Positions 1 to 22,047 of a stretch of 64,000 nt of DNA are shown here, in pieces. Made by a program: the position numbers and the translations under genes. This DNA is from a bacterium (GTDB lineage Bacteria > Hinthialibacterota > Hinthialibacteria > Hinthialibacterales > Hinthialibacteraceae). The notes under the pieces are model-generated. The model saw only the letters and a list, made by a program, of their open reading frames with translations, had not been told where the DNA came from and searched no databases. The stretch lies in the NCBI GenBank assembly GCA_963662285.2, contig CAXXMV010000002.1:224001-288000 (forward strand). The letters run 5' to 3'. Each line of letters opens with the position of its first letter. Positions within the stretch are counted from its first letter, which is position 1.

Positions 1-48
1 CGGCCTCGAAATACCATTATAAATCAAACTTTAAAAGGCTGAATGGTT

Positions 49-1674
49 TCAGTCAAAAATAGTGAAAAGAGACTCAATTTCTTCCGACGGTTTATAGTCA
101 TGAACGCGACTTAAGACGGAAGATTTAGCAATATTATACAAAACCTTGGCCTGAACCAGATTGGAGCGGTTAAGAGCCAAGTCAATCTGCAAATCCTGCA
201 AATCGCGGAAAGTGATGTTGCCAAAGTCGCGGAAGTCTATTAGACCGGTGTCAAGGTTGAACTGAGATTGGGTTACGTTGCGCTGGATAATTTCGATGCG
301 TTGAAGTTGCAGCATCAACTCACGTAAATTCCGGTAGGTGGATTGAACAAGTTGCCGTTCGGTATCCCATAATCTGATTTTTGATTGTTCAAGATTTTCT
401 TCAAGAGCACGCACTCGTGCGCGAGTCGCTCCACCGTCGCCAAAAGCCCAAGAGAAAATAAGCGCAGCGCCCAAATTCCGGTCGCTTTCGTCATTCTGAT
501 TGGCAAAGGTTGATAAAACTAAATCCGGTTGTTGACCCAATCGAGCGACGCGGAGGGAATTTTCGGATCTTTTGATCGAAAGGCGCAAGTTTTTCAGGTC
601 TAAATTGGTTGATGTGACAAGATTGATATATTCATTACTGGCAAGAGGGAGGGGTTTTACCTCTAACTTATCAGTTAAAATCAACTCAGTTTCAAGAGGA
701 ATCCCCAGAAAGATATTTAAGCTTTCCATGGAATTTCTGAGGCTTCCTTCGAGTTCAATAAGCGAAGCTTGATTATTAAGCACGTCGGTTTGAGCTTGAC
801 CGACGTCTTTTTGAGCTGCTTTTTCGAACTCATATTGCGTTTCAATAATGAAAGAAACTCGGAGAGATTGAAGCAGGCGTTCTTTTTGAATATCAAGTCT
901 TTCCTGTAATTGCTGGATGTTCCAATAGCGGTTTATAACAGTCTCTTCAGCGCTTTTTTCCTGGGCGAATAAACTGTAATCGGATTGAATGGCGGCAATT
1001 TTGGAGTTCTCAATTTGGGTTTGAATTTCCTTGCGTGATCTGGAATTAATGGGGTAGCTATAATTTATGTTCAGCTTATATCTGTCTTCGAAATGGTTGC
1101 CTTCAGGATTGTTCGGGCCGCTGTCAAAGGCGCCCTCGGAATAGTGTTGAAAGTCCATCTCTGGTTGAATATCAAGCCTTGAGCCATTCTTGAATGTTTG
1201 AGTATAACTGGGACCAATATTAAACAGAGTATTGTTTTCGTATTCCTTCTTCGTGTCGGTTATTAATCCTTTTTCAGGATCAATACGGAAGGAGCCGGAG
1301 GCGCGTCGACTTATGGTTTCGTCCAATCGAGAATCAAGGCTGTATTTGGAGCGATAATTACTTTCGGTAAGATCAAGGTTGGCCAGGCTGCTTTGTAGAG
1401 CATGTTTATCAATTTGTATATCGGGATTTTGCTTCATTGCGATATCAATGGCGTCTTGAATCGTAATGGTCATTTGCTTGCCTTTGGTTCGGAACTCTTC
1501 ATTTTGGAGTATAGATTCGGCAACGGTGATATCTTCGATTCTCATTCTCGCGGCGGATGCTTTTAATGTAACCGGAGATGGCGCAACAATCTCCTGAGCA
1601 AAAATGGGAGCGGCAATAATAGTAAATAGAAAAATAGATAGACCTTTGGAATAACGTTGTACATTCACACTCAC
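49..1674 (-). CDS. TolC-family outer membrane efflux protein
   Basis: Signal peptide, TITIQDAIDIAMKQNPDI start-of-OEP motif, two helical OEP repeats; last gene of the RND/MFP operon. Confidence 0.88.
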   Translation of the reverse strand: MSVNVQRYSKGLSIFLFTIIAAPIFAQEIVAPSPVTLKASAARMRIEDITVAESILQNEEFRTKGKQMTITIQDAIDIAMKQNPDIQIDKHALQSSLANLDLTESNYRSKYSLDSRLDETISRRASGSFRIDPEKGLITDTKKEYENNTLFNIGPSYTQTFKNGSRLDIQPEMDFQHYSEGAFDSGPNNPEGNHFEDRYKLNINYSYPINSRSRKEIQTQIENSKIAAIQSDYSLFAQEKSAEETVINRYWNIQQLQERLDIQKERLLQSLRVSFIIETQYEFEKAAQKDVGQAQTDVLNNQASLIELEGSLRNSMESLNIFLGIPLETELILTDKLEVKPLPLASNEYINLVTSTNLDLKNLRLSIKRSENSLRVARLGQQPDLVLSTFANQNDESDRNLGAALIFSWAFGDGGATRARVRALEENLEQSKIRLWDTERQLVQSTYRNLRELMLQLQRIEIIQRNVTQSQFNLDTGLIDFRDFGNITFRDLQDLQIDLALNRSNLVQAKVLYNIAKSSVLSRVHDYKPSEEIESLFTIFD

Positions 1675-1712
1675 ATACCTTCTTTCTTTAATCTGGAGAG
1701 AGATTCTAAAAT

Positions 1713-4700
1713 TTATACGGAAATATATGGATCCCTTGTGTGGTAAAGATACGCATCTTCCAGCGTGGCTTCAATGTTAATAGCTTCTGGAGCGGGCTTA
1801 TCGTCAGAAACGATGCGTAAGCAAATGCCATCGGCGGTGTGAGTTTGGCCGCCGACAGAATAAAGTTTCCTGTAACGATGCCATGCAGACTCATCTTCCA
1901 CTATAAGTTCCCAAACCTTGTCATGAATAGATTCAACCAGTTCCTCCGGGTTCCCGGAGAAGAATAATTTACCTTCATCCATTAAAGCCAGACGCCGGCA
2001 ACTATGAGCTACATCTTCAACAATATGAGTTGATAAAATAACAACTCTATCCTGGCTCAATTGGACAAGTAAATTACGGAAGCGCAGACGCTCCATAGGA
2101 TCGAGGCCTACGGTTGGTTCATCAACAATTAATACCTTTGGGGGGAAGACGAATATTTGAGCTAAACCTATGCGGCGCATCATGCCGCCAGAGAAATTAT
2201 TAACGGAGACATCTTTTTGTTCAGATAAATTGACCATTTCGAGAGCGTTTAATATAGCGGCGCGACGTTCTTTTTTGATCTTCATTCCTTTGAGAAGGGC
2301 GAAATAGTCTAAATATTGATAGGCGGTCATGTGGCTATAGACGCCGAAGTTTTGCGGAAGATAGCCAATAAGTTTCTGCGCTTTACGTGATTCGGTTTTC
2401 ATGTCATACCCGCAAATGGATAAAAAGCCGCGAGTCGGTTGATCTATACCTGCGATCAAACGAAGAAGCGTAGTCTTCCCTGCTCCATTTGGACCTAATA
2501 GGCCGAATAAACCGCTTTCGATTTTTAAGGAAATCATATCCAATGCTTTATGCCGAGCGCGCGTAATCACTCTTCTGCTTGATCCGGCAAAAGGCGCCGG
2601 GACAATACCGGTAGCAGGAGAAAGGTTGGGGAGGAAACCGCCGTGTAGCAAAGTTCTGGAAAAACTGGATAATCTTTCAATCCGGCTAACCGGATAAATT
2701 CGGGTTAGGTGATCCAGTTCTACAATAAGAGGCTCTTCCCGTGGCGGCGTTAAGCGATAGGCAGTAAGCGATTGCCGGACGTTAAGGCGTTTTTTGCGGC
2801 TCCAAAAGATGAATATCCATCGCCAGCTGAAAACAAATTTAAAAGCTCTCTTAAACAATCTGCTGATATCTTCAACGATAAAATAGAAACCGGGTACGAT
2901 AACAAGGGTTAATACGGTTGAGCTGGCAAGACCGCCAATGACGCATCGAGCGAATGGAATCCAATCATTGTCTTGTCCTTTCCATTCTATGGCCATGGGT
3001 AGAAGGCCGAGGATGGTTGTTGCCACCGTCATTAAAATGGGGCGGAGACGGTAGTGTCCTGCAACCATAATAGCGCGTTCGCGGGGGTAATTTTTTTCCG
3101 TTCGTAGATAACCGGAGAAATGGACGAGTAATATAGCGCTATTGGGAAGGATGCCAACCAGGAAAACATAGCCCATCGCCGCCATTTCGTTGAAAGGGGT
3201 GTTTGTGAGAATAAACATCCAGCCTATGCCAAAGATAGCTAAAGGAATGGATAAAAAGATGACGAAAGGAAGGCTGAACGATTCGAAAAGAGAAGCGATG
3301 CACATGAAAATTAAGATGCCGGACATCCAGGCAATCATTTTAAATTGTTCAAAGACTTCATTCAGCCGTTGAGATCGTCCACCCAATGTCATGCGATAAC
3401 CTGCCGGGATAGGATATATATCTATTAATCCTATAACGGCTTCCTCAATTTCAGTGAAATTACTGTTGGGAGCGGTTTCAAATCTAATATGGCCAATGCG
3501 TTCGCGGTTTTCACGTCTCATAGACCCCATGCCGCGTTTAATTTCCATGACGCCTAATTCTTTTAAGGTTACAGTGGAACCCATTGAAGGAGAATAGATG
3601 GGGATATCGCTTAATTCCTCGAATTTCATGCCTCCCAAGTCTTCCATATCTTTTTCAAGGTCTTCAGTTTTTTCGATCAAATTAAAAATTATATCAATTT
3701 CCTTGTCGCCTTTTTTCATTTGGATGCTGGCGTAATCGCCCCGGCGCTGAGATAGCTGAATGGATTGAGCAATTAATCTAGGGGTGATTTGCAACAAAGC
3801 AGCTGCATCACGATCAAGCTTAAAATGCGCTTCCAGTGGTCCGGGTTCATTTTCGCTGAATACATCGCGTATACCGGGAATCTGGTTCATAACGGCGGCG
3901 AAATTTTCGGCGATTTCGTTAATTTGATTATATTCCGGGCCGCGAATTTCAATGGAGCCGCCTTGTCCGGAATCGACGACAGGCATTTGATTCTCACCTC
4001 TGGTGCGGGTAGGCGTGAAAGTGACTTCGGCAACAGAGAAATTTTCAAATAAAGGCCGAAGTTCTTCCTTTATGGTTTCGGATTCACGTTCTCGTTCATC
4101 AAGGTCTTTCAGGCGTATGCTAATGTGGGCGGAATCGTCTTGCACCCAGGAGTGAATGTTTTTGGCTTCGGGAACTTTATCTAGCAGAATATCTTCAACT
4201 TGATTTATGACTTCGAGCGTATGATCCTGCTTGGTTCCATTGGGGAGATAAACCCAGACATGGAACCAGCTGCGATCTTCAGGTTCCGCTAAGACATCCC
4301 GGCTTATGTTGCCTAATGTGTAGTAGTAGGTATAAAGGATAAACAGAACGATGGCAAGAAGAAATCTGACGCGGTGCCGAAGGCAGCTCTTAAGAATGGA
4401 ACCGTAATATTTACGAGTCCATTTCATGGTAGGTATTGGAATGCGTTGGAGAAATTTCTTCAAACGATCCGGTGAAGGGGGTGGATCAATTTTATGAGAG
4501 TTGAGTGGAGCATTTGCTTCAAGATTTGAAAGATTTTTATTAAGCGGAGCGGTCCGGGCGCGTTTTTTATCCAGGATCATCATCAAGCGCGAGGTTAGCA
4601 TGGGAACCAAAGTAAGAGCGACAAGCATTGATATGACCATGGGATAGATAATCGCAAGAGCCGCTTCTGTAAACATCAAACGGATAAAACCTTCTACAAA

Positions 4701-6050
4701 GACAATGGGGAGAAAAACAACGACATTGGTCAAGGTAAGAGCAAAAACAGCTTTGCCAACTTCGTTGCAACCTAATACAGCTGACTGGATGCCATTTTTC
4801 CCCCGTTCATGATGTCTAAATACGTTTTCAAGAACTACGATAGAGGTGTCTATCAAACAACCAACGCCAACCGCCAGTCCGACCAAGGTAAACATATTGA
4901 TCGACATGCCGGTGAAGTACATGCCGTTGAAGGTAGCTATAATACAAATAGGAATAACCAGACATACAATCAGCGACATGCGCACATTACGTATAAAGAG
5001 ATATAGCACCAACATGGAAAGCGCAATACCCATAAATGCAAGCCGTGCGAGAGTGGATAACATATCCAGGATGGGAGTGGCGGCATCTGAAGTTACCGCT
5101 AATTCGTAACCATCCGGGAGCGTTTGGTTAATCAAGTCGATAACCTTGAGAGTTTTACGTGATAAGTCGACCGGATTGATCAAGGCTTCTTTTTGCAGAT
5201 TTATGCCTAAGGCAGGTTTACCGTCGACTCGGCGAAGCCAGCGCCGGGCATGGAAAGTATCTTTAACTTCTCCCAGGTGGCGGACGGCGATGCCGCCGTT
5301 GTTTTTCACCACGACATCTTCAATTTCAGAGGTATCGCCGAATTGTCCATCCAGCCGGACGAATAGATCTTTGCCTTGTTCTTCAATATCGCCGAGGAAA
5401 ACCGGTTCATTGGCGAAAGTCTGGACTCTATTTCTAACCTGCCAAATGGGAGTCCCGAATTCCTGCAATCTGTCCTGGAGAACGGTGATATCTATCGAGC
5501 GTCTTTTACCTCCCCAAATTTCGGCAGTGGCGATGCCGTCTATATCTTCGAGTTGTTGGCGAATCTTGTCTGCGTTTATTGCTTCCAGGTAGGGATCAGA
5601 TCTGGGACCTTTCAATACCAGATCCATGAAATCACTATTAAAATGCGAAGTTTCGAAAGGAAAAGCATTCATATATATAGAACGTTTAGGGAATGTTTTT
5701 TGAAAACGATCCAAGCGTTCCTGCAAATCGACAATACGGTATTTGACGTTTGCGCCAAATTCGAATTCGATACGGAAGAATGCTCCATGTCGAAAGGTAT
5801 AAGTATAAATATTCTTAACATCTTGGAGTTGAGCGATTTCCCCTTCGACAGGGATGATGATTTTTCGTTCTAATTCTTCCGCACTCATATGTTCCATTAT
5901 GCGGCAAAACGCTCCGCCGCCAGGAACCGTGATATCCGGCAGGATCTGCATGGGAAGTTTGAAATAAGAGACGAAACCGAGAATAACGATCGCGGAAAAA
6001 AACATGATCGTGGTAATAGGTCGATGAACGGCGATACTGGATAGTTTCAT
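1713..6050 (-). CDS. RND (AcrB/AcrD/AcrF-type) permease fused to a C-terminal ABC ATPase domain
   Basis: RND hallmarks (RPITTIM...LPMQILPDI, IDTSIVVLENV, RLRPILMT) over about 1060 aa. These continue in frame into an NBD with GPNGAGKT, YLPQ, FSGGM, IVDEPT and STH. Start placed at ATG 6050 (MKLSS); the ORF track extends it to 6104. Confidence 0.9.
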   Translation of the reverse strand: MKLSSIAVHRPITTIMFFSAIVILGFVSYFKLPMQILPDITVPGGGAFCRIMEHMSAEELERKIIIPVEGEIAQLQDVKNIYTYTFRHGAFFRIEFEFGANVKYRIVDLQERLDRFQKTFPKRSIYMNAFPFETSHFNSDFMDLVLKGPRSDPYLEAINADKIRQQLEDIDGIATAEIWGGKRRSIDITVLQDRLQEFGTPIWQVRNRVQTFANEPVFLGDIEEQGKDLFVRLDGQFGDTSEIEDVVVKNNGGIAVRHLGEVKDTFHARRWLRRVDGKPALGINLQKEALINPVDLSRKTLKVIDLINQTLPDGYELAVTSDAATPILDMLSTLARLAFMGIALSMLVLYLFIRNVRMSLIVCLVIPICIIATFNGMYFTGMSINMFTLVGLAVGVGCLIDTSIVVLENVFRHHERGKNGIQSAVLGCNEVGKAVFALTLTNVVVFLPIVFVEGFIRLMFTEAALAIIYPMVISMLVALTLVPMLTSRLMMILDKKRARTAPLNKNLSNLEANAPLNSHKIDPPPSPDRLKKFLQRIPIPTMKWTRKYYGSILKSCLRHRVRFLLAIVLFILYTYYYTLGNISRDVLAEPEDRSWFHVWVYLPNGTKQDHTLEVINQVEDILLDKVPEAKNIHSWVQDDSAHISIRLKDLDERERESETIKEELRPLFENFSVAEVTFTPTRTRGENQMPVVDSGQGGSIEIRGPEYNQINEIAENFAAVMNQIPGIRDVFSENEPGPLEAHFKLDRDAAALLQITPRLIAQSIQLSQRRGDYASIQMKKGDKEIDIIFNLIEKTEDLEKDMEDLGGMKFEELSDIPIYSPSMGSTVTLKELGVMEIKRGMGSMRRENRERIGHIRFETAPNSNFTEIEEAVIGLIDIYPIPAGYRMTLGGRSQRLNEVFEQFKMIAWMSGILIFMCIASLFESFSLPFVIFLSIPLAIFGIGWMFILTNTPFNEMAAMGYVFLVGILPNSAILLVHFSGYLRTEKNYPRERAIMVAGHYRLRPILMTVATTILGLLPMAIEWKGQDNDWIPFARCVIGGLASSTVLTLVIVPGFYFIVEDISRLFKRAFKFVFSWRWIFIFWSRKKRLNVRQSLTAYRLTPPREEPLIVELDHLTRIYPVSRIERLSSFSRTLLHGGFLPNLSPATGIVPAPFAGSSRRVITRARHKALDMISLKIESGLFGLLGPNGAGKTTLLRLIAGIDQPTRGFLSICGYDMKTESRKAQKLIGYLPQNFGVYSHMTAYQYLDYFALLKGMKIKKERRAAILNALEMVNLSEQKDVSVNNFSGGMMRRIGLAQIFVFPPKVLIVDEPTVGLDPMERLRFRNLLVQLSQDRVVILSTHIVEDVAHSCRRLALMDEGKLFFSGNPEELVESIHDKVWELIVEDESAWHRYRKLYSVGGQTHTADGICLRIVSDDKPAPEAINIEATLEDAYLYHTRDPYISV

Positions 6051-6091
6051 TGTAATTAATCTGCGTCTGACGACAGCCTCGCTAAGTTCTA

Positions 6092-8833
6092 TTAATGTCT
6101 CCAAAAGTGTCGATGATTATTTCTTCTGGTATTTGCGCGAAGAGCGGTGGTATCATCGCCTTCGATCAAAATTCTTCTTTCGGAGTGCATTCTGGATTTT
6201 TTTATTTTATCAAGATGAGGAACCTGTAATATCCAATTTTCGGGATCGACAACAGCAAAGATGGGTCGGTGAGGAGATGTAAGGTCCAAGGTTTTTTCTT
6301 CTCCGGCGTCCAACCATATATTCCGGGTTATATAATCCATCTCTGTTTCTACATAAATAGGTACGGCCATACGGCCAGAGCCATGGTTTTTGACGCGGAC
6401 TAAAGTTTTGTAAGTGATAACGCCGGTTCTATCGTCGGTGATTAATTTCGCTTCGGTATAAGTTATTTCGTATTCCGGCAAGGCATTTCCCAAAACCCAT
6501 TCATCAATATACCACCCCAGGTCATCTCCATAGAACTCTTCTAACAAAGGACGCAGCTCGTCAACGGGTATCTCCTGGAAGCGATAGCGACGGAACATCT
6601 CGCGCAGAAACGCCCACCAAGGTTTATCTCCCATAATATGATGCAGCATACGGAATAAAGCTTCACCACGAATACGTTCCAGTTCGGGGTGAGTTCCCAT
6701 TTTATGCAGAGATAAAAGAGATTCGCTTTTGGCGACGGAGAGCGGGAGATTGCGATTACTTCCAACATCGTATTTTAATTCTCTGCGGCGTTGCCAGGAA
6801 TTTCGTTCAAGTAATTTTGAGGCGTAACTTGATAAATAATCATTGACCCAAAAAGCCATTTCTCCGGTTGGGTGTATGGAGTGGTCGAAATATGCGCTGA
6901 TAAGGTTGCGATAAAAATTGTCGTGAATTTCACGTAATGTTTGGGGGAGCAATTGATAAAAGGGTATCAAACGCGGGTTGTGGTCGAATCTTTCCATCAA
7001 CCACATTTCTTCACTTATATAGCACATTTGATTTTCCGACACCAGGAACATACCGGGCATTTGAGCGTAGTACGTCTGTGGATTGGCTAAAGGTTTCGCC
7101 CAGGGAATTCTTAATTTATTGCGTTGAGAATATTCGGTCCGCCAAGTGTAAGGCGTTTCGACCAAGGTTAACTGGTTGAAGGGGATGCGGCCCAATTTAT
7201 CATTAACAAATTCGTGTTGATCCTTAACTTCTTCCATATATATCTGAGCTTTATATTTGTGCATGGGGAAATGGTAGAAGCGAACGTTATATCCAAAAGA
7301 ATCACTTTCCAGTAATTGGTAGTTACCCCAATACATCTGTAATCGGTTAACGGGATATAAGGTTGACCAATGCTCGGTGCGGGCCTGGCCGTCTTCTTGG
7401 GAGTCGATCAAATCACCAGCGAAAGCGCCTTGCTGGCCTGGTTCCAGATGAAGCGTGATTTCTGACTCGAACAGGTCGTCATCAACCTTGACCCAGCGTT
7501 CATTTTCCGCTTGGAATTTGCGCCATGGAACAGGATACCATTTATTATGCATGGCGGTGTATTGTGGATGAAACTCCACCGGGGCGCCATGATAATTAAC
7601 CGATAATCTATATTCTTGATGCGGGATTAAAGATTCGCTGAAGTTAAATCGGACGCGGTTTTGTTGACGTGCGAAAGAACATTCTTGATTATCAAGTGCA
7701 GCTTCATCAACAGTGTATCTTGGATCAAGTTCAACGCCTAAATATCTGGTGGATTCTTTCGGGGTGAAGATTAAATCCGACTGGATATCCAAGCGGCTGT
7801 ATGTTTCGTTAGGTTTCAAGTCGAATTCATATTTTTGAAGGTCTACAGAAATAGCGGGAAACTTGACTCTTACCACGTTTTCTTCATGGCCATGTCCGTT
7901 TTTGATAAGAAAGTCTTTATAACTATATGTCGCCCAAATTACGCTGGTAGCGGATACAAGCAAAGTAAGCGTAAGAAATAAACGATATCCCCAACCCAAA
8001 TGGCGATCAAAGCGTAGATTGGTTATTGCTCGCATTATTAATGAGACGCTAAATAGACTGTTGCGTTTTCGATTTACAATCCACCTTTGAGGTTCCTGTC
8101 TTCTCAAATATAAGGGAGCAAAGGAAAGGATGGTCAAGCTTAATAAAGCATGCATAAATAATTGCACCCAATATTTTTCAAAAGAAAGACGTACTCCAAT
8201 AGTGGAAGATGAATTGGCGAGGTATCTAATGACGTCGGGGATATTGATTAAAATTCCTTCATGTACGCCCAGTTGATAAACGAATGCTCCAATAAGGCCG
8301 CCAATGATCAAGGCGGCGAAGTCATGTTTGAAAAAAGAGCGCATGGTTATCGCTAAAGCTGCTACTGGCACTATGACCGGAAGAACAAGAAGGATAAAAG
8401 CAACCCAGAAAGGCCGCCAGATAATCATACCATGCCCATATAGATATTGCCATAAGCCAAAGGAAAAAATACCTATTAAACTAAGAGGAACCATGACGAT
8501 AAGGACGCCGAGCAAGCGTCCACACATGAGAGAGGTGACGCCTACCGGCAGGGGGAACAAAATCTTATCCATACGGCTATGGCGTAGGCGACCACAGATA
8601 TCAAGCGCCAGAGCGCAGGCGCCAAGTCCGAGAATGGCTATCATCAACCAGAAACTCGGGTGTTGAAAGCTAAAAGCGGAATGAAGGAAAAATCCATCCT
8701 GCGCTCGTATAAGATAGTCTCGACGAGCGAACAGAGATATCCCTGCAACAAGTCCTAATAGCAGCCAGAAACGCCATCCACGACAGCTCATGCGAGCTTC
8801 GTTTAAGGCGATCAGTATGGTTTTGCGCAACAT
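6092..8833 (-). CDS. ABC-2-type permease fused to an M1 aminopeptidase-like domain (catalytic motifs degenerate)
   Basis: N-terminal multi-TM ABC-2 membrane domain (IALNEARM..., LFPLPV...GRLLG). The C-terminal part follows the M1 layout (RGEALFRMLHHIMGD, DLGWYIDEWV, VVDPENWIL) but has no HEXXH. Confidence 0.75.
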   Translation of the reverse strand: MLRKTILIALNEARMSCRGWRFWLLLGLVAGISLFARRDYLIRAQDGFFLHSAFSFQHPSFWLMIAILGLGACALALDICGRLRHSRMDKILFPLPVGVTSLMCGRLLGVLIVMVPLSLIGIFSFGLWQYLYGHGMIIWRPFWVAFILLVLPVIVPVAALAITMRSFFKHDFAALIIGGLIGAFVYQLGVHEGILINIPDVIRYLANSSSTIGVRLSFEKYWVQLFMHALLSLTILSFAPLYLRRQEPQRWIVNRKRNSLFSVSLIMRAITNLRFDRHLGWGYRLFLTLTLLVSATSVIWATYSYKDFLIKNGHGHEENVVRVKFPAISVDLQKYEFDLKPNETYSRLDIQSDLIFTPKESTRYLGVELDPRYTVDEAALDNQECSFARQQNRVRFNFSESLIPHQEYRLSVNYHGAPVEFHPQYTAMHNKWYPVPWRKFQAENERWVKVDDDLFESEITLHLEPGQQGAFAGDLIDSQEDGQARTEHWSTLYPVNRLQMYWGNYQLLESDSFGYNVRFYHFPMHKYKAQIYMEEVKDQHEFVNDKLGRIPFNQLTLVETPYTWRTEYSQRNKLRIPWAKPLANPQTYYAQMPGMFLVSENQMCYISEEMWLMERFDHNPRLIPFYQLLPQTLREIHDNFYRNLISAYFDHSIHPTGEMAFWVNDYLSSYASKLLERNSWQRRRELKYDVGSNRNLPLSVAKSESLLSLHKMGTHPELERIRGEALFRMLHHIMGDKPWWAFLREMFRRYRFQEIPVDELRPLLEEFYGDDLGWYIDEWVLGNALPEYEITYTEAKLITDDRTGVITYKTLVRVKNHGSGRMAVPIYVETEMDYITRNIWLDAGEEKTLDLTSPHRPIFAVVDPENWILQVPHLDKIKKSRMHSERRILIEGDDTTALRANTRRNNHRHFWRH

Positions 8834-8872
8834 CCTAATTTATTCCTTTCGCTTAACCTTTGGATGGTGGAA

Positions 8873-11800
8873 TCAGGCTTCCTGATGTTCCACTTCAACG
8901 CTTTGCGTCCCAAATAGCGAAAATAGTTTGTATATAATCTGTACTGCATCTTCAAATAGGCTGTAAACAACAGGGATGATAAGTAATGTCAAGATGGTGG
9001 AGGACAACAATCCACCGATAACCGCTATGGCCATCGGGGCCCGGATTTCGGCGCCTTCTCCGAAGCCCATAGCCAGAGGTAAAAGAGCCAGAACCGTAGT
9101 TAATGTTGTCATGAGGATGGGACGCAAACGACGGCATCCGGCCCGGACAATGGCGTCAAACATTTCCTCGCCTTCGTCCCGGCGGAGATAATTAATGTAG
9201 TCGACAAGCACAATTGCGTTGTTGACGACGATGCCGGCCAGCATAATGATGCCAATGTATCCCATCAAATTTAAGGTTTGCCCGGTTAGATAAAAAGCCC
9301 AGATTACGCCCACTGCGGCGAGAGGCAGTGAAAACATGATAACGAATGGATGGAGAAGAGATTCAAATAACGACGCCATAACCATATATACAAGAACCAG
9401 TGCGAGAACCAGTGCGAAGGCGAGTCTTTCAAAAGATTCACGTCTACGCTGCTCTTCTCCACCGAAATTTATATAATAATTGCTTGGTGGTTGAATGTTT
9501 CCAATACTCTCTTGAACCGCTCCAACCGCATCGCTCAGTTTTTGACCTTCAGCCACGTCCGCCAGGACTCGAGCGATACGTTCCTGCTCCCGGTGTAGTA
9601 TTTCCCGTGGTCCGGGTTGAATATCCACATCGACCAGGTTGCCCAGAGTAACGGCTTGGCCATTTCCTGTCGGAATTAGAGTGTTGAGCAGTTCGGGCAG
9701 GTTCATTTCTCCATCACCCAGTTGAACGCGGATGGCTTTAGTTTGATCAACGTCCTGCAGGTTGGTGGCTACCATCCCGCGTAATTGGTTGGAGACAAGT
9801 GTTATTAACTGTTGTTGATCAAGATCGTATTCATTCATAAGAATACGGTCCGGGATAAGGTGCACTTCTGGATTCCCATCGAGGATAGTGGTTCGAATAT
9901 TGGCCAATTCGGCCAAAGTATCCATTTGGGCTTTTACATCTTTAGTAAGGTTGGTTAAGGTTTCTAAACTACGTCCTTTAATTTCAACGACGATAGCGGC
10001 TTTTTCGCCTCCGATTAATGTAGCAAGGGAAGTTTGAGACATAAGAAAGGTCAGTTCCAACTTATGTATTTGCTTTGCTCGCGGCTCTAAATATTCTATT
10101 ACCTGTGGTACGGATAGCGAGGAGCCATTTTTGAGTGAAACGAGCATTTCCGCCGTATGCGAACCTTCAGGTTCTTCATCAATGGCGCCGGTGTCGTTGG
10201 GCTTGGGGCCAATGCGGGTGAAAATATGATCGATGTGCTGTCCCAAATCTTGTGAAAGCCAACCTTCGATGCTTTTCGCGGCTTGTTCTGTTGTTTCCAG
10301 CTTGGAACCGGGCGGCAAGCGTAATTTAACAATGAATTGTGATTCGGCGGCTTGTGGAATAAATTCCTGTTTGATTTCTTGAAGCAAGGGATAAACAGAC
10401 AAACAAGCCAGTGAGATAAATAAACAAGTAATAAAGCGGTGTCGCAACGAGAAGGCTAAAAAGGAAGCGTAGATTCCGCCTTGCGTGTCGGAACGCGCCT
10501 GGGGAACTTTTTTCAAGTAACGGGAGCATAATGCAGGGATCATAATTAATGCAACAACTAATGATGTAAGCAAAGAGAAGACAACGGTTAAGGCTTGTTC
10601 CTTAAATAATTGCGCTGTAACGCCGCCCATATAGGCAATAGGGACGAAAACAACTACGGTAGTAAGGGTTGCGGCGGCGATGGCCGAAGCAACTTCTCCG
10701 GCGCCAATCATGGCGGCATCAGAAGGAGAGTCGCCTAGTTGCCGACGGCGAAAGATGTTTTCGATAACAACAATGGCATTATCCACTAACATGCCTGCCC
10801 CTAAGGCCAGGCCGCCCAAAGTCATGATATTGAGTGAAAGATCCATAAAATACATCAGGTTGAAAGTTGCTAAAATGGATACTGGAATAGCTAAAGCAAC
10901 AATGATGGTTGAGCGGATATTTCTTAAAAAAATCAAAAGAATTAATGATGCTAATCCAATGCCCTGAAAAGCAGTGTTCTTGACCTCTGATATTGAGCGG
11001 TTGATGAACAGCGATTGGTCATAAGCGACTTCCAGAGTTAAATCTTTGGGAATTATGCTGGTTTCCTGTCTTAGTCCAAATCCCCCTGCCATGCCTCTAT
11101 TACTGACAGGCTGGAGTTTATCTTGATCTTTGCCAAGAAAGTCACGGACAGATTTAACGACGTCAACCGTGTTTCCGCCAGCTTCTTTGTATAAAGCGAT
11201 GCCAACGCCGGGATTATTATCCATCCGTACCATATCTACCGGTTCTTCAAAACTCCACTTTGCTTCGCCCACATCGGTAAGATAAATGGGAACGCCGCCG
11301 GAATAACCAACGACGCATTGGGCGACCTGTTCGATATCTTCGATTTCGCCTATAGCCCTGATCATATAGCGCTGATTACCCTCTTCAACATATCCGCCGG
11401 AAGCGCTGACATTGGCTTGATCCAAGGCCTGTGAAATAGCTGGTATGGAAAGACCATAAAAATGGAGCAATTCGGGATCGAGCATACAATGGATTTCGGG
11501 GATTAATCCTCCGGTAACTTCGGCGCGGGCTACTCCCTTAATTCGTTCCAGGGCCGGGCCGATGGTACGTTCGCAGAGATAACGCAATTCTTCTAAATTA
11601 CGTTTTCCATATAATCCCAATGTCATAATGGGTAATGCGTTTGGATCGTAGCGATAAGCCGTTATTTCTTCGATTTCATCAATACGGCTGCCCTGGGTAT
11701 TCTTCTTAACTTCGAGCATGGCGAAGTTCATATCGGTTCCCCAGTTAAAATCGACGATTATGGCGCCTGAATCGGCGCGGGAAACGCTGGATACTTTATC

Positions 11801-12133
11801 GACGCCCGAGATAGTCTTTAATCGTCCTTCTAGAGGCTCAATGACGATTCTTTCTATTTCCTGGGGCGCCAAACCGGGAGCGTCGGCCATTACGGTTATT
11901 CTGGGGGCCCTTAGATCGGGGAATAAGTTGGTCGGTAATTTGCTGAGTGATATCCAACCCAGCATAATAATGCCTACAAAAAACATGCTGACCGTTACAG
12001 GGTATTTTACTGCGAATGCCGCGGCGCCCATTCCTCTACGAAGAAGGCCGCCATCTTCAATAGAACCATCTTGCGGTTGGCCAGCAACTTCTGAAGTTGC
12101 TTGATTTAAATTTTCTTTTTCACGATTATCCAT
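8873..12133 (-). CDS. RND (AcrB/AcrD/AcrF-type) efflux permease
   Basis: YPVTVSM...LPTNLFPDL, GMLVDNAIVVIENI, GIVVNNAIVLVD, RLRPILMTTLTT; 1086 aa. Confidence 0.95.
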   Translation of the reverse strand: MDNREKENLNQATSEVAGQPQDGSIEDGGLLRRGMGAAAFAVKYPVTVSMFFVGIIMLGWISLSKLPTNLFPDLRAPRITVMADAPGLAPQEIERIVIEPLEGRLKTISGVDKVSSVSRADSGAIIVDFNWGTDMNFAMLEVKKNTQGSRIDEIEEITAYRYDPNALPIMTLGLYGKRNLEELRYLCERTIGPALERIKGVARAEVTGGLIPEIHCMLDPELLHFYGLSIPAISQALDQANVSASGGYVEEGNQRYMIRAIGEIEDIEQVAQCVVGYSGGVPIYLTDVGEAKWSFEEPVDMVRMDNNPGVGIALYKEAGGNTVDVVKSVRDFLGKDQDKLQPVSNRGMAGGFGLRQETSIIPKDLTLEVAYDQSLFINRSISEVKNTAFQGIGLASLILLIFLRNIRSTIIVALAIPVSILATFNLMYFMDLSLNIMTLGGLALGAGMLVDNAIVVIENIFRRRQLGDSPSDAAMIGAGEVASAIAAATLTTVVVFVPIAYMGGVTAQLFKEQALTVVFSLLTSLVVALIMIPALCSRYLKKVPQARSDTQGGIYASFLAFSLRHRFITCLFISLACLSVYPLLQEIKQEFIPQAAESQFIVKLRLPPGSKLETTEQAAKSIEGWLSQDLGQHIDHIFTRIGPKPNDTGAIDEEPEGSHTAEMLVSLKNGSSLSVPQVIEYLEPRAKQIHKLELTFLMSQTSLATLIGGEKAAIVVEIKGRSLETLTNLTKDVKAQMDTLAELANIRTTILDGNPEVHLIPDRILMNEYDLDQQQLITLVSNQLRGMVATNLQDVDQTKAIRVQLGDGEMNLPELLNTLIPTGNGQAVTLGNLVDVDIQPGPREILHREQERIARVLADVAEGQKLSDAVGAVQESIGNIQPPSNYYINFGGEEQRRRESFERLAFALVLALVLVYMVMASLFESLLHPFVIMFSLPLAAVGVIWAFYLTGQTLNLMGYIGIIMLAGIVVNNAIVLVDYINYLRRDEGEEMFDAIVRAGCRRLRPILMTTLTTVLALLPLAMGFGEGAEIRAPMAIAVIGGLLSSTILTLLIIPVVYSLFEDAVQIIYKLFSLFGTQSVEVEHQEA

Positions 12134-12196
12134 CAGAGATCCTTCTGTTTAGACTATACAAAATTGAACAAATCCATATCAGGAACACCATTAAAC

Positions 12197-13042
12197 CTAT
12201 GTAAACCACTTGGACGTTTGCCGTAATTGGCGGAAAAGATAATCTAATACAAATCCAGCCAATACCAGAACAAATATTCTGTTAAAAATTATGGAAAATA
12301 AGGGTGAATTTCTTGAAATTACGCCCGGGGGAAGAATCGGATTGGCGAACAGTTCGATAGGGCCGATAGAGCGCAACCAGAAAAAATGGACGCCCAAAAT
12401 AAGCAGTGATACTAATCCGGTAGCAATTCCATGTTTGCAAAAGGTTGATACTAATATTGTTATGGAACCAACAGCAAAAGATGTTGTGGTTAACAGTAGA
12501 ATTATGGTCCATCGCCCTTCGGTATATGCGCTGAAGTAGCTGAAAAACAATATTACCAGAACGCTAAAAATTAGTTGCCAAAGGGTTACTGTAACAAGTT
12601 GAAGAACAATCAATGCGCCGCGACGAATTGGTTGGCTCCAAAGAATTTCCAGTGTTCCATCATCCCTTTCACGGGGTAATATGTTCATGCATAGTAAAAC
12701 CATAACTAGCGAGAAATAGATGTAGCAATAATATAAGAGCTCATGCATATTCTGGCCATGGTTTTGGGTTACTACCCAGCCAAAAAAAGCTAATGCTCCA
12801 ATTAGCGCAAGAAAGGATTCGATGCGTAGAAAAAGCCGGGAAGTAAAAAGAAATAATTTGAACCAATAAGAAATCTCTCTGAAACTCCATTTTACGGCGT
12901 GGAAAAAAGTTGCTATGATCCAATATATATTCTGGCCTAGTACGATAAAGAGTGAAAGAAAACCTTTCCACGCACGTTTAATAAGACCTGGCGGCATGCT
13001 GGCGGAAGCAGGAAGTTTTTCTAAATTATCCAATGAATCCAT
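12197..13042 (-). CDS. ABC-2 type transporter permease
   Basis: About 6 hydrophobic segments and an ERDDGTLEILWSQPI coupling-helix motif; lies directly downstream of the ABC ATPase. Confidence 0.8.
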   Translation of the reverse strand: MDSLDNLEKLPASASMPPGLIKRAWKGFLSLFIVLGQNIYWIIATFFHAVKWSFREISYWFKLFLFTSRLFLRIESFLALIGALAFFGWVVTQNHGQNMHELLYYCYIYFSLVMVLLCMNILPRERDDGTLEILWSQPIRRGALIVLQLVTVTLWQLIFSVLVILFFSYFSAYTEGRWTIILLLTTTSFAVGSITILVSTFCKHGIATGLVSLLILGVHFFWLRSIGPIELFANPILPPGVISRNSPLFSIIFNRIFVLVLAGFVLDYLFRQLRQTSKWFT

Positions 13043-13053
13043 GGTTCATTTCC

Positions 13054-13932: not shown

Positions 13933-13982
13933 AATGGGTGATCTCCGAAATAGGCGCAGAGAAAGCGGTATTACGAAATTTT

Positions 13983-14006
13983 AAAAGCCGCGTTTGAAGA
14001 CGCGGC
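13983..14006 (-). terminator. Intra-operon hairpin with short U tract after the MFP gene
   Basis: Minus strand GCCGCGT-CTTCAA-ACGCGGC followed by TTTT. Confidence 0.5.
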
Positions 14007-14033
14007 GAATATTTATCATAAGCAGCATGGCTA

Positions 14034-15566
14034 TTATTTTGCGTCGGATTCAGTGGTTGTTTTTGTGGAATCATCTCCACTAAGGAATTCCTCATCGCGA
14101 ATAGTGATATTGATGTCAACATCATCGGTTAGCGTTTCATATCCTAATACTACAAGAAGATCGCCTTCTTGCAGACCGTCGATAATTTCAATTTTTTCAC
14201 GATTCTCTATACCGACGGTAACCACTCTCTCCTCGGCAATAAGATCAGGTTCTTCTTTTTTAACTGGTTCTTCCTCTTCATCAAACAGTTCTTCGTCAGT
14301 TGCATCAGAGATATCATCAGTAGCGGCTGCAATTTTAGGGGAAATATCTTCGGCGGCGGATGCTGTTTTTTCAAAACCTTTATTCGAAGCTAAAGGAATT
14401 TTTTCGTTTGAAGGTTGATCATCGTTTGTTTGGGGCAATTGCAATTCTTCGGTTGCGCTTTTAACTTCTTCTTCGATGGGTTTTTCCTTTGCAACAAAGA
14501 CAACCTGGCGGTTGTTGCGTAGAAGCACCAATTCCCGTGGGATGCTTATGGAATCTAATCTCTCTTCGGTAATTATCCTTGCTTTGGCGAACATACCCGG
14601 CCGTAATTCGTGGGCGGGATTATCTACCAGAACATTGACGGTATAGGTTCGGGTGGTTGAGTTGAGCGCGGTGGAGATATCAGCGATTTTGCCGATATAA
14701 ACCATAGCGGATTTGGTATAGACTTCGAGTTCTACCTGTTGTCCAATTTCCACTTCGACAAGATCTTTGGCTGGCACATCAAGCGCCACATAGACCTTGT
14801 CGATATTTGCCAATCGGCAGAGAACGGTGCCTTGAGCAATGGTTTGACCATTAAATAATGTCAAATCAGTCTCTTCGGTGGATCGTTGGGCTATGGAGAC
14901 ATTTTGCCGGGCTGGCAGAAGAACGCCGCTATATGGGATTACAATGGGAACTTTTTCTTGATCCTGCTTGATTCTTTGTAATTCCATTTGTCTGGAACGA
15001 ATCGTTTTCAAGGTAGACTCAAAAGCATTTTTTCTTTGTATTCTGGCAAGAATCGCTTGATCATACTCATATTTGGAGATAGCGCCGCGTTCGAACATCG
15101 CTTGCTTAAATGCTTCATCTTTATAAGCTTGCGCCAAGTTAGCGCTGGCTGGATTGATCTCTGCTTTGGCTGATTCAAGTTGCAATTCAGATATTTCAAT
15201 ATTCCGGTTTAATTCACGCGCATCCATTCTGGCCAGGATTTCGTCTTTTTTAACTTCGTCGCCTTCCAGCCATTTCTGCGTATAGTAAATACGGCCAGAC
15301 ATTTCAGGTTTGATTTCCAGTTCTTTAATAGGGACGACAGTTCCTCTGGCCTGGAGATAGGCAAACATTCTGCCGCGGGTAACGCGTTCTACGGTTACAG
15401 GTATTTTGAATTTGGGTTTTTGAGGTTTACCAAAATTTCCACCGGGTTTTCCTTGTGAAAGTTTACTGCCCTGCCCCGCTTTGTTGGATTTTCCCCCGAA
15501 ATATCCGCAACCAGTGATTAAAGCGATTCCAAGCGTAAGAATTAAAAAACTGCGCACCATTTTCAT
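14034..15566 (-). CDS. RND periplasmic adaptor (membrane fusion protein), lipoprotein
   Basis: Lipobox LITGC, IKPEMSGRI...EGDEVKKDEILA biotinyl-lipoyl motif, helical hairpin, LRPGMFA and IEIIDGLQEGDLLVV motifs. Confidence 0.92.
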   Translation of the reverse strand: MKMVRSFLILTLGIALITGCGYFGGKSNKAGQGSKLSQGKPGGNFGKPQKPKFKIPVTVERVTRGRMFAYLQARGTVVPIKELEIKPEMSGRIYYTQKWLEGDEVKKDEILARMDARELNRNIEISELQLESAKAEINPASANLAQAYKDEAFKQAMFERGAISKYEYDQAILARIQRKNAFESTLKTIRSRQMELQRIKQDQEKVPIVIPYSGVLLPARQNVSIAQRSTEETDLTLFNGQTIAQGTVLCRLANIDKVYVALDVPAKDLVEVEIGQQVELEVYTKSAMVYIGKIADISTALNSTTRTYTVNVLVDNPAHELRPGMFAKARIITEERLDSISIPRELVLLRNNRQVVFVAKEKPIEEEVKSATEELQLPQTNDDQPSNEKIPLASNKGFEKTASAAEDISPKIAAATDDISDATDEELFDEEEEPVKKEEPDLIAEERVVTVGIENREKIEIIDGLQEGDLLVVLGYETLTDDVDINITIRDEEFLSGDDSTKTTTESDAK

Positions 15567-16196
15567 AATGATCGATTCCTGTATTGATTTATTGATTAAT
15601 TAACTTCTTGTAATTATATTGCTTATGATAGTTCAAAGATAATGAAGATTCAGTGTTCCCTACTTAACTTTATTTTTGAATAAACGTTTGACATCTCTTT
15701 TTACTACGCAAATTTACCTATAAAGGTTTAAAAAAAGTTTTACGATAAACGAAATAGAATATTTCAAATAGTACAAAAACGACAAATTCATCGTTCAAAT
15801 TTGACCAATAAATACAAAATCACAATATTATTTATTTATCATATAATTAATAGCCAGTGGCTATCAGTCCGCTTTATCCGCTGGCGGCTTTGTGAGCGGA
15901 ACAAATAGGAGGAATTAATTTAATAAGTATAGGTCTCGTATTTAAGAAGATATGTTCCTTTTAAAATAATTTTATCATAGGAGAATTATCAAGATGAATT
16001 TATTAAAATATGATGGTAATTCTCATATTTATCTGCATAAATCTTTAGACTTGATAACGGCCAAAATATTCTTTTCATCTATAAATCTATTCAATTATTT
16101 TTTTAATCTATTCTATTGTAGCGAGGCGCTGAATATGAGAAACTGGTAATAGGGTTAATTATTCTTGATTATAAAATAAGTCTATTTGTAAAATGA

Positions 16197-17495: not shown

Positions 17496-17576
17496 GGTCA
17501 ACTCTTTATGATTCTTTCATGTAATTTAATGCTAGATTACTATATCATTGATGTCATATCAAAAAAGGAAAAGACT

Positions 17577-18584: not shown

Positions 18585-18715
18585 TATGCAAAAGATGTAG
18601 AATTGGTTTTATCTTCTACGTTGATTGTAGATAAAATATATAGAGATTAATAAGGTGGATCCAATCAAGGGCAGAAAGGACACTGCCCTTGCCACCCGTT
18701 TTGGTGGGATAATAG

Positions 18716-19174: not shown

Positions 19175-19180
19175 GAAGGT

Positions 19181-21047: not shown

Positions 21048-21078
21048 CTATTTTAATGTGATTAAGGAGAGAAAAGTC

Positions 21079-22032: not shown

Positions 22033-22047
22033 ATTTGTTTCCCGATA

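Follow-up and report, generated by a model that had tools for sequence, protein, structure and literature searches.

AcrB-type RND pumps form trimers. In MdtABC-type pumps two RND paralogs, MdtB and MdtC, are encoded in one operon with a single membrane-fusion protein, or periplasmic adaptor (MFP). ABC ATPases work as dimers; those of the ABC-2 or type V exporters, such as DrrAB, GldAFG, NodIJ, YbhFSR and the eukaryotic ABCA proteins, are free or joined to their own permease, and YbhG is the adaptor of YbhFSR. The M1 zinc aminopeptidases, whose zinc site reads HExxH-x18-E, are relevant here because of their fold. MacB has four TM helices. In MacAB-TolC, the genes of an MFP and an outer-membrane factor (OMF) share an operon with that of an ABC transporter whose periplasmic domain is large. 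The MacB ABC ATPase domain (NBD) is fused N-terminally to its own permease (PMC8277102).

The window, by which is meant the whole stretch of 64,000 nucleotides analysed, from a bacterium of the phylum Hinthialibacterota, carries a gene in which an AcrB-like RND permease is joined to an ABC ATPase (RND2::NBD), together with the following neighbours.

49..1674, minus strand: outer-membrane factor, OMF (Pfam OEP, TolC-like)
6050..1713, minus strand: RND2::NBD fusion gene, a single open frame of 1445 codons with its stop at 1713-1715
6092..8833, minus strand: P913, 913 aa, seven TM helices and a periplasmic M1-aminopeptidase-like domain
8873..12133, minus strand: RND1, an unfused AcrB-like permease of 1086 aa that shares 27-30% identity with the fused RND
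12197..13042, minus strand: small ABC-2 permease, 281 aa
13054..13932, minus strand: free ABC ATPase, 292 aa, paralogous to the fused ATPase and with all motifs intact
14034..15566, minus strand: membrane-fusion protein or periplasmic adaptor, MFP (Pfam HlyD_D23, HlyD_3)
15567..16196, no strand: gene-free, low-G+C stretch of 630 bp upstream of the first gene

The fusion thus shares its operon with both an MFP and an OMF, the partners of a tripartite pump. The small permease matches Pfam ABC2_membrane_2 at 35.3 bits (cut-off 27.2). The gene-free stretch is presumed to hold the promoter region, and a promoter scan of it returned sites no commoner than in shuffled sequence.

The longest open frame across the fusion spans 1713..6104 on the minus strand, 1463 codons from a TTG at 6104, and within it Pfam ACR_tran covers residues 22-1077 (profile 2-1020 of 1021, E 3.7e-165) and ABC_tran residues 1189-1331 (E 7.8e-27). 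Translation probably begins at the ATG at 6050 (MKLSSIAV...), because the resulting 1445 aa equal the length of the relative P0003 (89-92% identical) and because the Pfam match opens at profile position 2, three residues past that Met. Both halves belong to their families, the RND part to PF00873, the AcrB/AcrD/AcrF family, over its full length (551.8 bits, cut-off 28) and the ATPase to PF00005 (95 bits, cut-off 25). A first-pass annotation had described a full-length RND permease continuing in frame into a motif-complete ABC ATPase, and the open frame, the Pfam matches and the motif coordinates bear it out; the sequence strings that it quoted were all located within the window. The parts of the fusion, all on the minus strand, are as follows.

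2874..6041, minus strand: RND permease domain (ACR_tran), 12 predicted TM segments
4824..4859, minus strand: TM4 motif CLIDTSIVVLEN, AcrB D407-equivalent Asp kept, D408 position Thr
3123..3155, minus strand: TM10 motif GILPNSAILLV, AcrB K940 position Asn
3027..3050, minus strand: TM11 motif RLRPILMT, AcrB R971-equivalent Arg kept
2868-2909, minus strand: last RND TM, TLVIVPGFYFIVED
2787..2864, minus strand: aromatic/basic (Trp/Arg-rich) amphipathic linker SRLFKRAFKFVFSWRWIFIFWSRKKR, modelled as helices continuing from TM12
2730..2786, minus strand: second linker part LNVRQSLTAYRLTPPREEP, with conserved LTAYR..PPREEP
1716..2729, minus strand: ABC ATPase domain, beta1 to C-terminus, C-terminal motif TLEDAY
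2691-2729, minus strand: beta1, LIVELDHLTRIYP
2547..2690, minus strand: insertion of 48 residues after the A-loop Tyr (RIYP) and before beta2, absent from the free ATPase
2469-2495, minus strand: Walker A, GPNGAGKTT
2352-2366, minus strand: Q-loop, GYLPQ
2172-2195, minus strand: signature, FSGGMMRR
2100-2135, minus strand: Walker B, VLIVDEPTVGLD
2013-2036, minus strand: H-loop, LSTHIVED
1743-1766, minus strand: TLEDAYLY

In the RND part, a Kyte-Doolittle scan finds the twelve hydrophobic segments and two large loops, at about 49-352 and 598-922, the arrangement of twelve TM segments and two large periplasmic loops that marks the family. For the proton relay, where we take the AcrB numbering D407, D408, K940 and R971 to apply to the TM4, TM10 and TM11 positions, the fused RND lacks the AcrB-type combination of two TM4 aspartates and a TM10 Lys, reading Asp-Thr and Asn, and the unfused RND1 shows the same pattern. 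Because the D408 and K940 positions are unconserved in either RND of the operon, the proton pathway differs from the textbook one. Among the fusions, the TM4 Asp is kept by 39 of 40 proteins in class A and 69 of 70 in class B (the classes are described below), and the Arg-x-Arg-Pro columns of TM11 are invariant in both class alignments, a regular expression for R-x-R-P finding the motif in 22/40 class A and 67/70 class B fusions. Retention of these residues gives, at the level of sequence, no sign that proton coupling has been abandoned.

The tether between RND and ATPase is short (~45 residues) and conserved; W1096, W1101 and R1106 of the linker and the A-loop Tyr are each at least 90% conserved among 39 class A sequences. 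No Met occurs between the last TM and beta1, in agreement with the earlier remark that the fusion has no ATG where the free ATPase starts. All seven catalytic elements (A-loop Tyr, Walker A, Q-loop, signature, Walker B Glu, D-loop and H-loop) are present, five of which the first-pass annotation had already reported as intact, and they are invariant or nearly so across 39 sequences of class A and 26 of class B, so that the fused ATPase is predicted to be catalytically competent; the free ATPase has the full motif set as well. The two ATPases had also been called paralogs with a common C-terminal LEDAY, and the free one is indeed the closest paralog of the fused one in the genome (45% identity, E 8e-71), with NLEDAY against TLEDAY. 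The 48-residue insertion consists of one short helix followed by a segment of low model confidence and carries a conserved SPxxG(F/I)(L/V)P; at the same site class B fusions have ~190 residues with four TM helices, and six extra TM helices in all surround their first ATPase strand, four of them within the ATPase fold. An AlphaFold model of TM7-12, linker and NBD did not place the ATPase confidently relative to the membrane domain (pTM 0.56). The insertion, the seven-gene system and the wide spread of the fusion had not figured in the first-pass annotation.

The best solved relatives of the fused ATPase are the NBDs of ABCA4, ABCA3, ABCA1 and ABCA7 (E ~1e-56 to 1e-52), and its best NCBIfam models are DrrA (TIGR01188, 173.6 against a cut-off of 312.45 bits), GldA (TIGR03522, 167.1 against 402.6 bits) and NodI (NF010060, 144.1 against 521 bits), to none of which it belongs. 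In a tree that also took in six other ABC ATPases of this genome, the NBDs of both classes, fused or free, group in a single clade with an SH-aLRT of 99 and the six fall outside it; a single origin of the class A and class B fusions was not resolved in this tree.

The structure model of P913 is confident (pLDDT 84, pTM 0.79) and has seven TM helices with an M1-aminopeptidase fold after them, and Foldseek matches the ~600 periplasmic residues, over ~590 aligned columns with probability 1.0 and E ~1e-19, to 8sw0, PSA, ERAP1/2, IRAP and PepN; Pfam Peptidase_M1 gives a weak match at the end of the catalytic domain. The HExxH zinc motif is absent from all 78 P913 homologs checked (0/32 class A, 0/46 class B), and the M1-like domain is most likely a binding or scaffold domain, not a peptidase. 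The membrane domain stays below threshold against ABC-2 Pfam profiles (PF12679 and relatives, E 0.25-2.3), while a class B ortholog from Draconibacterium matches ABC2_membrane_2 at 29.6 bits (cut-off 27.2). The large proteins of the two classes align by hhalign with 100% probability (E 8e-47) over columns 3-885, membrane part included. Between the small permease and the P913 membrane domain hhalign detected no sequence similarity (probability 0.9%).

The fusion belongs to a conserved set of seven components found in many bacterial phyla. Class A has the order MFP-NBD-small permease-RND1-P913-RND2::NBD-OMF in 9 of 10 loci from other genomes of the phylum, and P913 is present in all 23 fusion-bearing genomes of the phylum and absent from 10 of the 12 without the fusion. 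Class B, the longer form, occurs in Bacteroidota (cultured species included), Zixibacteria, Calditrichota and Latescibacterota, with the same seven parts in the usual order NBD-Large-OMF-MFP-RND1-RND2::NBD-small. In the 59 class B loci surveyed from other phyla, an RND gene lies directly upstream of the fusion in 58 (the exception has 16 nt of upstream sequence) and the small permease directly downstream in 54 (the other five have at most 215 nt of downstream sequence). A P913-like gene of ~1100 aa is present in 53, the other six having less than 6 kb of upstream sequence, and the free NBD stands in front of it in 46 of the 53, the other seven ending just before that point. MFP and OMF are present in the class B loci, save that two Latescibacterota loci lack the OMF. 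The small permeases of the two classes are related (hhalign probability 97.5%, E 8e-12). Every complete locus encodes a pair each of NBDs, ABC-2-like membrane proteins and RNDs, and the adjacency of permeases and NBDs is swapped between the class A and class B gene orders; since the adjacency is swapped and the counts stay constant, one four-part ABC transporter is a better fit than two pairs of fixed composition. Modules are also found separately, as seen in L044, where a single genome has a second fused copy beside an ECF sigma factor with no partner genes adjoining, and in L120, a Bacteroidales chromosome with a free NBD and Large pair and no RND gene in the 10 kb fetched on either side.

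The reading favoured here, with a probability of roughly 0.5, is that an ABCA/ABC-2-like exporter is joined covalently, by way of one of its two ATPases, to an RND pump built from two paralogs, and that the two have one adaptor and one outer-membrane duct in common. The cytoplasmic C-terminus of the 12-TM RND is extended through a conserved membrane-interface helix into an ABC-2/ABCA-like ATPase. This ATPase would pair with its free paralog as the dimeric motor of a single ABC-2-type exporter, whose membrane half would consist of the small permease together with P913's 7-TM domain. The exporter would thereby be covalently tethered to a heteromeric pump of RND1 and RND2, served by the operon's single adaptor and OMF. 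The ATP-driven module would take up substrate from the cytoplasm or inner leaflet; the proton-driven RND would receive it from there, perhaps by way of P913's inactive periplasmic M1-like domain, and expel it across the outer membrane. The fusion with its intact motifs, its conservation, the gene set kept with it, the folds of the parts and the retained TM4 Asp and TM11 Arg are observed; the binding of the partners, their stoichiometry, the hand-off and the substrate are what we infer in this model, which needs an asymmetric stoichiometry because an RND trimer would meet an ATPase dimer. Also counting against it are the sub-threshold ABC-2 scores of the P913 membrane domain, the lack of similarity between that domain and the small permease, the modules standing apart in L044 and L120, and the unconserved D408 and K940 positions. 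A narrower form, possible but tentative, is a dual-energised, single-conduit exporter in which the ABC transporter (fused and free ATPase, small permease, P913) is docked covalently on a heterotrimeric RND, ATP lifting substrate from the cytoplasm or inner leaflet, the inactive M1-like domain passing it to the RND entry and the proton-motive force driving export through adaptor and duct. With one RND2::NBD protomer per heterotrimer, each RND trimer would then carry exactly one ABC transporter.

Nothing was found in favour of an artefact or a decayed locus, in which two genes would have been joined, with no functional meaning, by assembly error or by recent loss of a stop. Contig cover is 4-5 fold in the two sequencing runs of one sample in which the locus was followed. 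Contigs assembled independently from those runs span 1600-6200 with 0 differences and 0 gaps, although this agreement lends weak support, since the sample is probably the source of this DNA. Fusion-type matches were found in 23 of 35 genomes of the phylum, and 23 of the 24 matches are stop-free open frames of 1429-1501 aa at 52-73% identity, the 24th being cut by a contig end. Full-length homologs, a check that the first-pass annotation had proposed, were sought with the linker plus NBD, and the best 120 relatives all carry both Pfam domains; separately encoded halves, which it had named as a refutation, did not appear, the best 36 relatives in a search using just the RND part (34-92% identity) being fused without exception. 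No protein starting at the linker was found in a library of 1.84 billion representatives. The fused relatives, the open frames and the 59 class B loci of other phyla refute assembly error or a lost stop as the origin of the fusion, and together with the conserved linker and intact catalytic motifs they leave an artefact with next to no probability. The earlier view that these are not two accidentally merged genes is upheld by retention of the fusion across this phylum and others, and the comparisons indicate that the gene encodes a genuine bifunctional polypeptide under constraint.

That single MFP and OMF genes accompany two kinds of transporter is also what would be expected if an ABC-2 transporter and an RND pump were separate engines, each an ordinary tripartite pump with common adaptor and duct, linked for co-localisation or equal dosage and with no hand-off. 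ABC-2 transporters paired with an adaptor are known, E. coli YbhFSR among them, and the isolated pair of L120 points the same way. Such an arrangement is nevertheless unlikely, as it leaves unexplained a fusion without exception down to 34% identity, the near-invariant linker residues and the fusing of just one of two ATPases. Alternatively, the fused ATPase might drive or gate its own RND in cis by ATP binding or hydrolysis, with the free ATPase alone serving the ABC-2 permeases; the short, conserved tether, the absence of the AcrB-type D408 and K940 from both RNDs, and the six class B TM helices, which, with four inside the ATPase fold, weld that domain to the membrane portion of its own chain, would suit this. 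The loss of D408 and K940 is not tied to the fusion, however, because the unfused RND1 shows it too, and the TM4 Asp and TM11 Arg are retained. An ABC ATPase requires a dimer partner, and the paralog is always encoded alongside; two ABC-2-like membrane proteins go with two ATPases in every complete locus, and we know of no coupling-helix-like element in RND pumps. Control in cis is accordingly judged quite improbable, and the tethered exporter remains the preferred reading.

Literature searches turned up no description of a seven-part RND-ABC exporter, and the gene set points to a so far undescribed efflux machine, one that may draw on both protons and ATP for energy. MdtABC-type pumps are like it in having two RND genes and a single MFP in the operon. 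Among solved structures, MdtB comes closest to the fused RND (9lyq_B, E 2e-65), and MdtB and MdtC are among its best equivalog models, yet it falls far below their cut-offs and is a member of neither (NF007798, 254.5 against 1584 bits; NF007905, 269.8 against 1774 bits). Here, in contrast to MdtABC, one RND paralog bears an ABC ATPase, the D408 and K940 positions are unconserved, the operon also encodes two ABC-2-like permeases and a further ATPase, and the RND1-RND2 heteromer is a putative one. The ATPase is most like those of the ABC-2 or type V exporters, with which it shares a C-terminal extension, ending in LEDAY, but it is joined to an RND, lies below every equivalog cut-off and has an insertion after the A-loop. 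P913 has the fold of the M1 aminopeptidases at 10-14% identity, but lacks HExxH and is anchored to a 7-TM domain. MacAB-TolC likewise unites an ABC transporter bearing a large periplasmic domain with MFP and OMF in one operon; unlike MacB, P913 combines seven TM helices and weak ABC-2 similarity with a periplasmic domain of the M1-like kind, and its gene set includes an RND pump as well.

The gene RND2::NBD (6050-1713, minus strand) lies in a stop-free frame of 1463 codons (1713-6104, minus strand), in which the ATG at 6050 is the likely start because the resulting product of 1445 aa has the length of its closest relative, database protein P0003. Its RND part is a complete AcrB-family permease (residues 22-1077, covering positions 2-1020 of 1021 of the Pfam profile, E 3.7e-165), with twelve transmembrane (TM) segments in a hydropathy scan, and its ABC ATPase domain falls at residues 1189-1331 (Pfam, E 7.8e-27). 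The strings quoted in the first-pass annotation, namely the last TM, the linker, beta1, the motifs and the C-terminal LEDAY, were all located in the window, and the Walker A, Q-loop, FSGGM signature, Walker B Glu and H-loop that it had called intact were each mapped in the fused ATPase, where an A-loop Tyr (RIYP) was also found. The features around the junction are as follows:

2787-2864, minus strand, aromatic/basic linker (string mapped to the window)
2691-2729, minus strand, beta1 of the fused ATPase, LIVELDHLTRIYP (string mapped to the window)
2547-2690, minus strand, 48-residue insertion directly after the A-loop Tyr, not in the free ATPase

The unfused ATPase at 13054-13932, previously proposed as a paralog of the fused domain, is indeed its nearest relative in the 7.29-Mb genome (45% identity, E 8e-71) and the sole other close copy; a genome search found no second fused copy.

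An accidental merge of two genes, which would make the fusion an artefact, is excluded by three independent lines, and an artefactual origin is accordingly given almost no weight here. When residues 1075-1463 were used to query 5.8 billion proteins, with candidates limited to 804-2561 aa, all 120 of the best matches listed carried both PF00873 and PF00005. Among those 120, 39 proteins of 1400-1470 aa (class A) cover the linker at 38-89% identity, 70 proteins of 1540-1600 aa (class B) align over the ATPase only, and the remaining 11 are of other lengths and fragment-like. With the RND part alone as query (residues 19-1080), the 36 best matches are likewise all fused (34-92% identity), and unfused RNDs appear only from 32% identity downward. 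The question of whether close homologs are encoded as one gene or two is thus answered in favor of one. Within the phylum, matches at E <= 1e-60 occur in 23 of 35 genomes, and 23 of the 24 fusion-type matches are stop-free frames of 1429-1501 aa, the last being truncated where its contig stops. No protein starting with the linker was returned when 1.84 billion representatives were searched without a filter, and each linker-covering match is either a complete fusion or a fragment in which RND sequence precedes the linker; together with the open frames, this bears out the earlier proposal of an in-frame fusion as opposed to two merged genes. Two runs of one sample, assembled independently, yield contigs that cover 1600-6200 of the window without a difference, an agreement that adds little because that sample is probably the source of this DNA. 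Sequencing run X3 shares a small part of the sequence words and covers just three short stretches, and the search for matching runs listed none of RNA.

The linker appears to be more than a passive tether. Across 39 class A sequences, conservation is complete or at least 90% for the tryptophans of SWRWxFxFW, the Arg after them, LTAYR, PPREEP and the A-loop Tyr, and AlphaFold models the linker as helices continuing from TM12, with the insertion beginning as one short helix that passes into a low-confidence stretch. Class B fusions possess six extra TM helices (for example, P0074 residues 1040-1250, and the consensus of alignment A1), two after RND TM12 and four inside the ATPase fold between beta1 (ITIRNVVKxYDD) and beta2, the latter at the same site as the soluble 48-residue insertion of class A. 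An ABC ATPase with a membrane hairpin bundle within its fold is unusual.

The best solved relatives of the fused ATPase are the nucleotide-binding domains of ABCA4, ABCA3, ABCA1 and ABCA7, and its best NCBIfam models, DrrA, GldA and NodI, each score below cut-off; it is therefore an ABC-2/ABCA-like ATPase outside any named equivalog. In the ATPase tree, from which the row L044_freeA (branch length 10) should be disregarded as an unrelated ORF, the ATPases of both classes, fused and free alike, fall in a single clade (SH-aLRT 99) that leaves six other ATPases of the genome outside. The fused domains of class A and those of class B are monophyletic (99 and 98, respectively), and the free ones of the two classes join at 87, with no firm branching in this tree for the deeper order of fused A, fused B and free domains. 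Every catalytic motif is kept in both the fused and the free ATPases, and therefore neither site looks degenerate.

The fusion is the sixth gene of a seven-gene operon:

15566-14034, minus strand, MFP (membrane-fusion adaptor), operon gene 1
13932-13054, minus strand, free ATPase, operon gene 2
13042-12197, minus strand, small ABC-2 permease, operon gene 3
12133-8873, minus strand, RND1 (unfused RND paralog), operon gene 4
8833-6092, minus strand, P913 (913-aa protein with an M1-like domain), operon gene 5
6050-1713, minus strand, RND2::NBD, operon gene 6
1674-49, minus strand, OMF (outer-membrane factor), operon gene 7

Ten loci were fetched from other phylum genomes, and nine of them repeat this order exactly. 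The tenth, L044, comes from a genome (G023) that has the full operon and, apart from it, an isolated second fused copy; at L044 the class A fusion gene (L044:9661-13935) has none of its six partner genes alongside, an ECF-type sigma factor (7156-7722) and two ORFs without family match (7719-8294 and 8310-9482) lie directly upstream, and the other strand carries a PF16962 'putative ABC exporter' gene at 3055-4689. P913 is present in all 23 phylum genomes having the fusion and absent from 10 of the 12 without it, the two exceptions being a 77%-complete genome and one with a partial domain match only. The P913 ortholog of one genome (G018:C21:5676-8369) has a single in-frame TGA inside the match.

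Upstream of the operon is a 630-bp leader region of low G+C (15567-16196, about 0.36), preceded by a 434-aa ORF with no Pfam match (16197-17501, minus strand). A promoter and terminator scan of 1-17000 is uninformative because the counts match those of shuffled sequence (37 promoter-like sites versus 37.7, and 17 terminator-like sites versus 17.9). The neighboring genes in 17508-24244 appear unrelated to the operon:

17508-18584, TRAP transporter DctP
18716-19174, TRAP transporter DctQ
19181-19693, minus strand, CheD
19827-21047, FG-GAP repeat protein
20959-22032, BD-FAE/alpha-beta hydrolase
23015-24244, ArgJ

Class B was surveyed by scanning one genome per GTDB species with an alignment of 26 class B proteins, and the best 80 of the 584 relatives found were kept. 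A class B fusion ORF is present in 59 of these 80 loci and a class A fusion in one more, with free ATPases or fragments in the others. Carriers include the cultured Bacteroidota Draconibacterium mangrovi, Prolixibacter bellariivorans, Marivirga sericea, Marivirga tractuosa, Parabacteroides massiliensis, Bacteroides sp. 224 and Maribellus maritimus, and metagenome-assembled genomes of Zixibacteria, Calditrichaceae, Gemmatimonadaceae and Latescibacterota. The class B order is NBD-Large-OMF-MFP-RND1-RND2::NBD-small, where Large is the class B P913: RND1 is directly upstream of the fusion in 58 of 59 loci, the small permease directly downstream in 54, and Large is found in 53, 46 of which also have the free ATPase. 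Each missing RND1, small permease, Large or free ATPase falls where the fetched DNA ends; the OMF is absent from the cluster in both Latescibacterota loci. By profile comparison, class B Large and class A P913 are homologs (probability 100%, E 8e-47, 812 columns), and so are the small permeases of the two classes (97.5%, E 8e-12). Adjacencies are swapped, for in class A the free ATPase adjoins the small permease and P913 the fusion, whereas in class B the free ATPase adjoins Large and the fusion the small permease. Class B Large proteins also differ from class A P913 in bearing a C-terminal Golvesin_C domain (PF25275, E 5e-17 to 1.5e-12; for example, L050:302-3649 residues 991-1113). In four class B loci (L069, L079, L085 and L096) two or three ORFs stand in place of an intact Large or RND1, which could reflect frameshifts, assembly errors or decay.

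Related pairings occur beyond these clusters. A Bacteroidales chromosome (OY760906.1, L120:9953-14257) encodes a free ATPase paired with a large P913-like protein of 1108 aa; no RND gene was found within the 10 kb fetched on either side. The nearest free ATPases of Chloroflexota and Bacillota (L109, L110, L114 and L125) adjoin large membrane proteins, and in L109, L110 and L125 a neighboring ORF is a weak match to the class B large-protein profile.

P913 itself has no family match above threshold, and its 32 relatives are annotated "hypothetical". In a confident AlphaFold model (pLDDT 84, pTM 0.79) an amphipathic helix at the N terminus is followed by seven TM helices and then by a domain of 600 residues that matches M1 aminopeptidases (Foldseek, E about 1e-19). 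This domain should be periplasmic, as predicted from the seven TM helices and a basic 243-280 loop inside, and it is probably not a peptidase because HExxH occurs in none of the 78 homologs checked. For the membrane part, the window's protein shows weak ABC-2 similarity, and the Draconibacterium ortholog scores above the Pfam threshold.

With respect to energy coupling, MdtB is the best solved relative of the fused RND, which nevertheless scores far below the MdtB and MdtC cut-offs. Relay positions were read from its alignment to MdtB, using the AcrB numbering (D407, D408, K940 and R971). At D407/D408 the fused RND reads D-T, its K940 position is Asn and R971 is kept; unfused RND1 has D-N and Asn at the corresponding positions. 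Among the fused proteins, 39 of 40 in class A and 69 of 70 in class B keep the TM4 Asp, a simple motif search recovers the TM11 pattern in 22 of 40 and 67 of 70, respectively, and the Arg-x-Arg-Pro columns are invariant in both alignments. The relay thus departs from the AcrB pattern with its core retained, a departure that is not specific to the fusion. Replacement of proton coupling by ATP was considered and rejected, since loss of D408 and K940 is shared by unfused RND1 and the TM4 Asp and TM11 Arg are conserved. Among distant matches are other RND fusions (P0370 and P0371), one a 1475-aa RND with PF02321 (outer-membrane efflux protein) and one an RND with PF01883.

The gene set matches exactly the requirements of one heteromeric ABC-2 exporter, with its two ATPases and two membrane proteins, and also supplies the two RNDs, one MFP and one OMF of a two-paralog RND pump. 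The reading that best fits the whole, to which we assign a probability of about 0.5, is an ABC-2 exporter tethered to an RND heteromer. The fused and free ATPases would dimerize on the small permease and the membrane domain of P913, the exporter would be held by RND2 at the rim of the RND heteromer, and substrate would pass from an ATP-driven to a proton-driven step. If a single protomer of an RND trimer were RND2::NBD, each pump would carry one ABC transporter, an attractive arrangement that we wholly infer.

Several observations count against a tethered exporter: the symmetry mismatch between an RND trimer and an ATPase dimer, and the dissimilar membrane domains of the small permease and P913, which give no sequence-level sign of kinship (hhalign probability 0.9%). 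The AlphaFold model of TM7-12, linker and ATPase also weighs against it, for although its domains are well folded (pLDDT 81.7), its pTM of 0.56 leaves the placement of the ATPase relative to the membrane domain uncertain. When the fused ATPase was predicted jointly with the small permease and P913 residues 1-315, the median score was 0.34, versus 0.58 for a control with P913 replaced, an outcome that speaks neither for binding nor against it. That the modules also exist apart, as in L044 and L120, is a further point against it; two engines sharing merely the adaptor and duct is an alternative we regard as unlikely, if worth keeping in mind. Direct action of the fused ATPase in cis on its own RND finds its best argument in the class B architecture, and we consider it rather improbable.

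RND pumps are understood to load substrate from the periplasm or outer leaflet, and depend for the first step out of the cytoplasm on separate inner-membrane transporters. A natural, ancient and widespread fusion that joins an ABC motor covalently to an RND permease is a ready system for testing the physical coupling of the two steps and of two energy sources, and alongside it there are always the remaining parts of an ABC-2 transporter, a second RND, a single adaptor and a single outer-membrane duct. Because class B occurs in cultured Bacteroidota such as Marivirga tractuosa and Parabacteroides massiliensis, the question is experimentally approachable. Hundreds of these fusions are already in public databases under generic names, either "efflux RND transporter permease subunit" or "ATP-binding cassette domain-containing protein" only, so that the architecture is visible and uninterpreted. 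Neither an RND-ABC fusion nor an ABC-2/M1-like permease was found described in the literature library searched, which includes few subscription journals, and the passages on fused and chimeric proteins in PMC8277102, a large 2021 review of tripartite pumps, describe no RND-ABC fusion. Since each of its parts belongs to a known superfamily, the system counts as an ABC-2 exporter and tripartite RND pump in hybrid form, and no new category.
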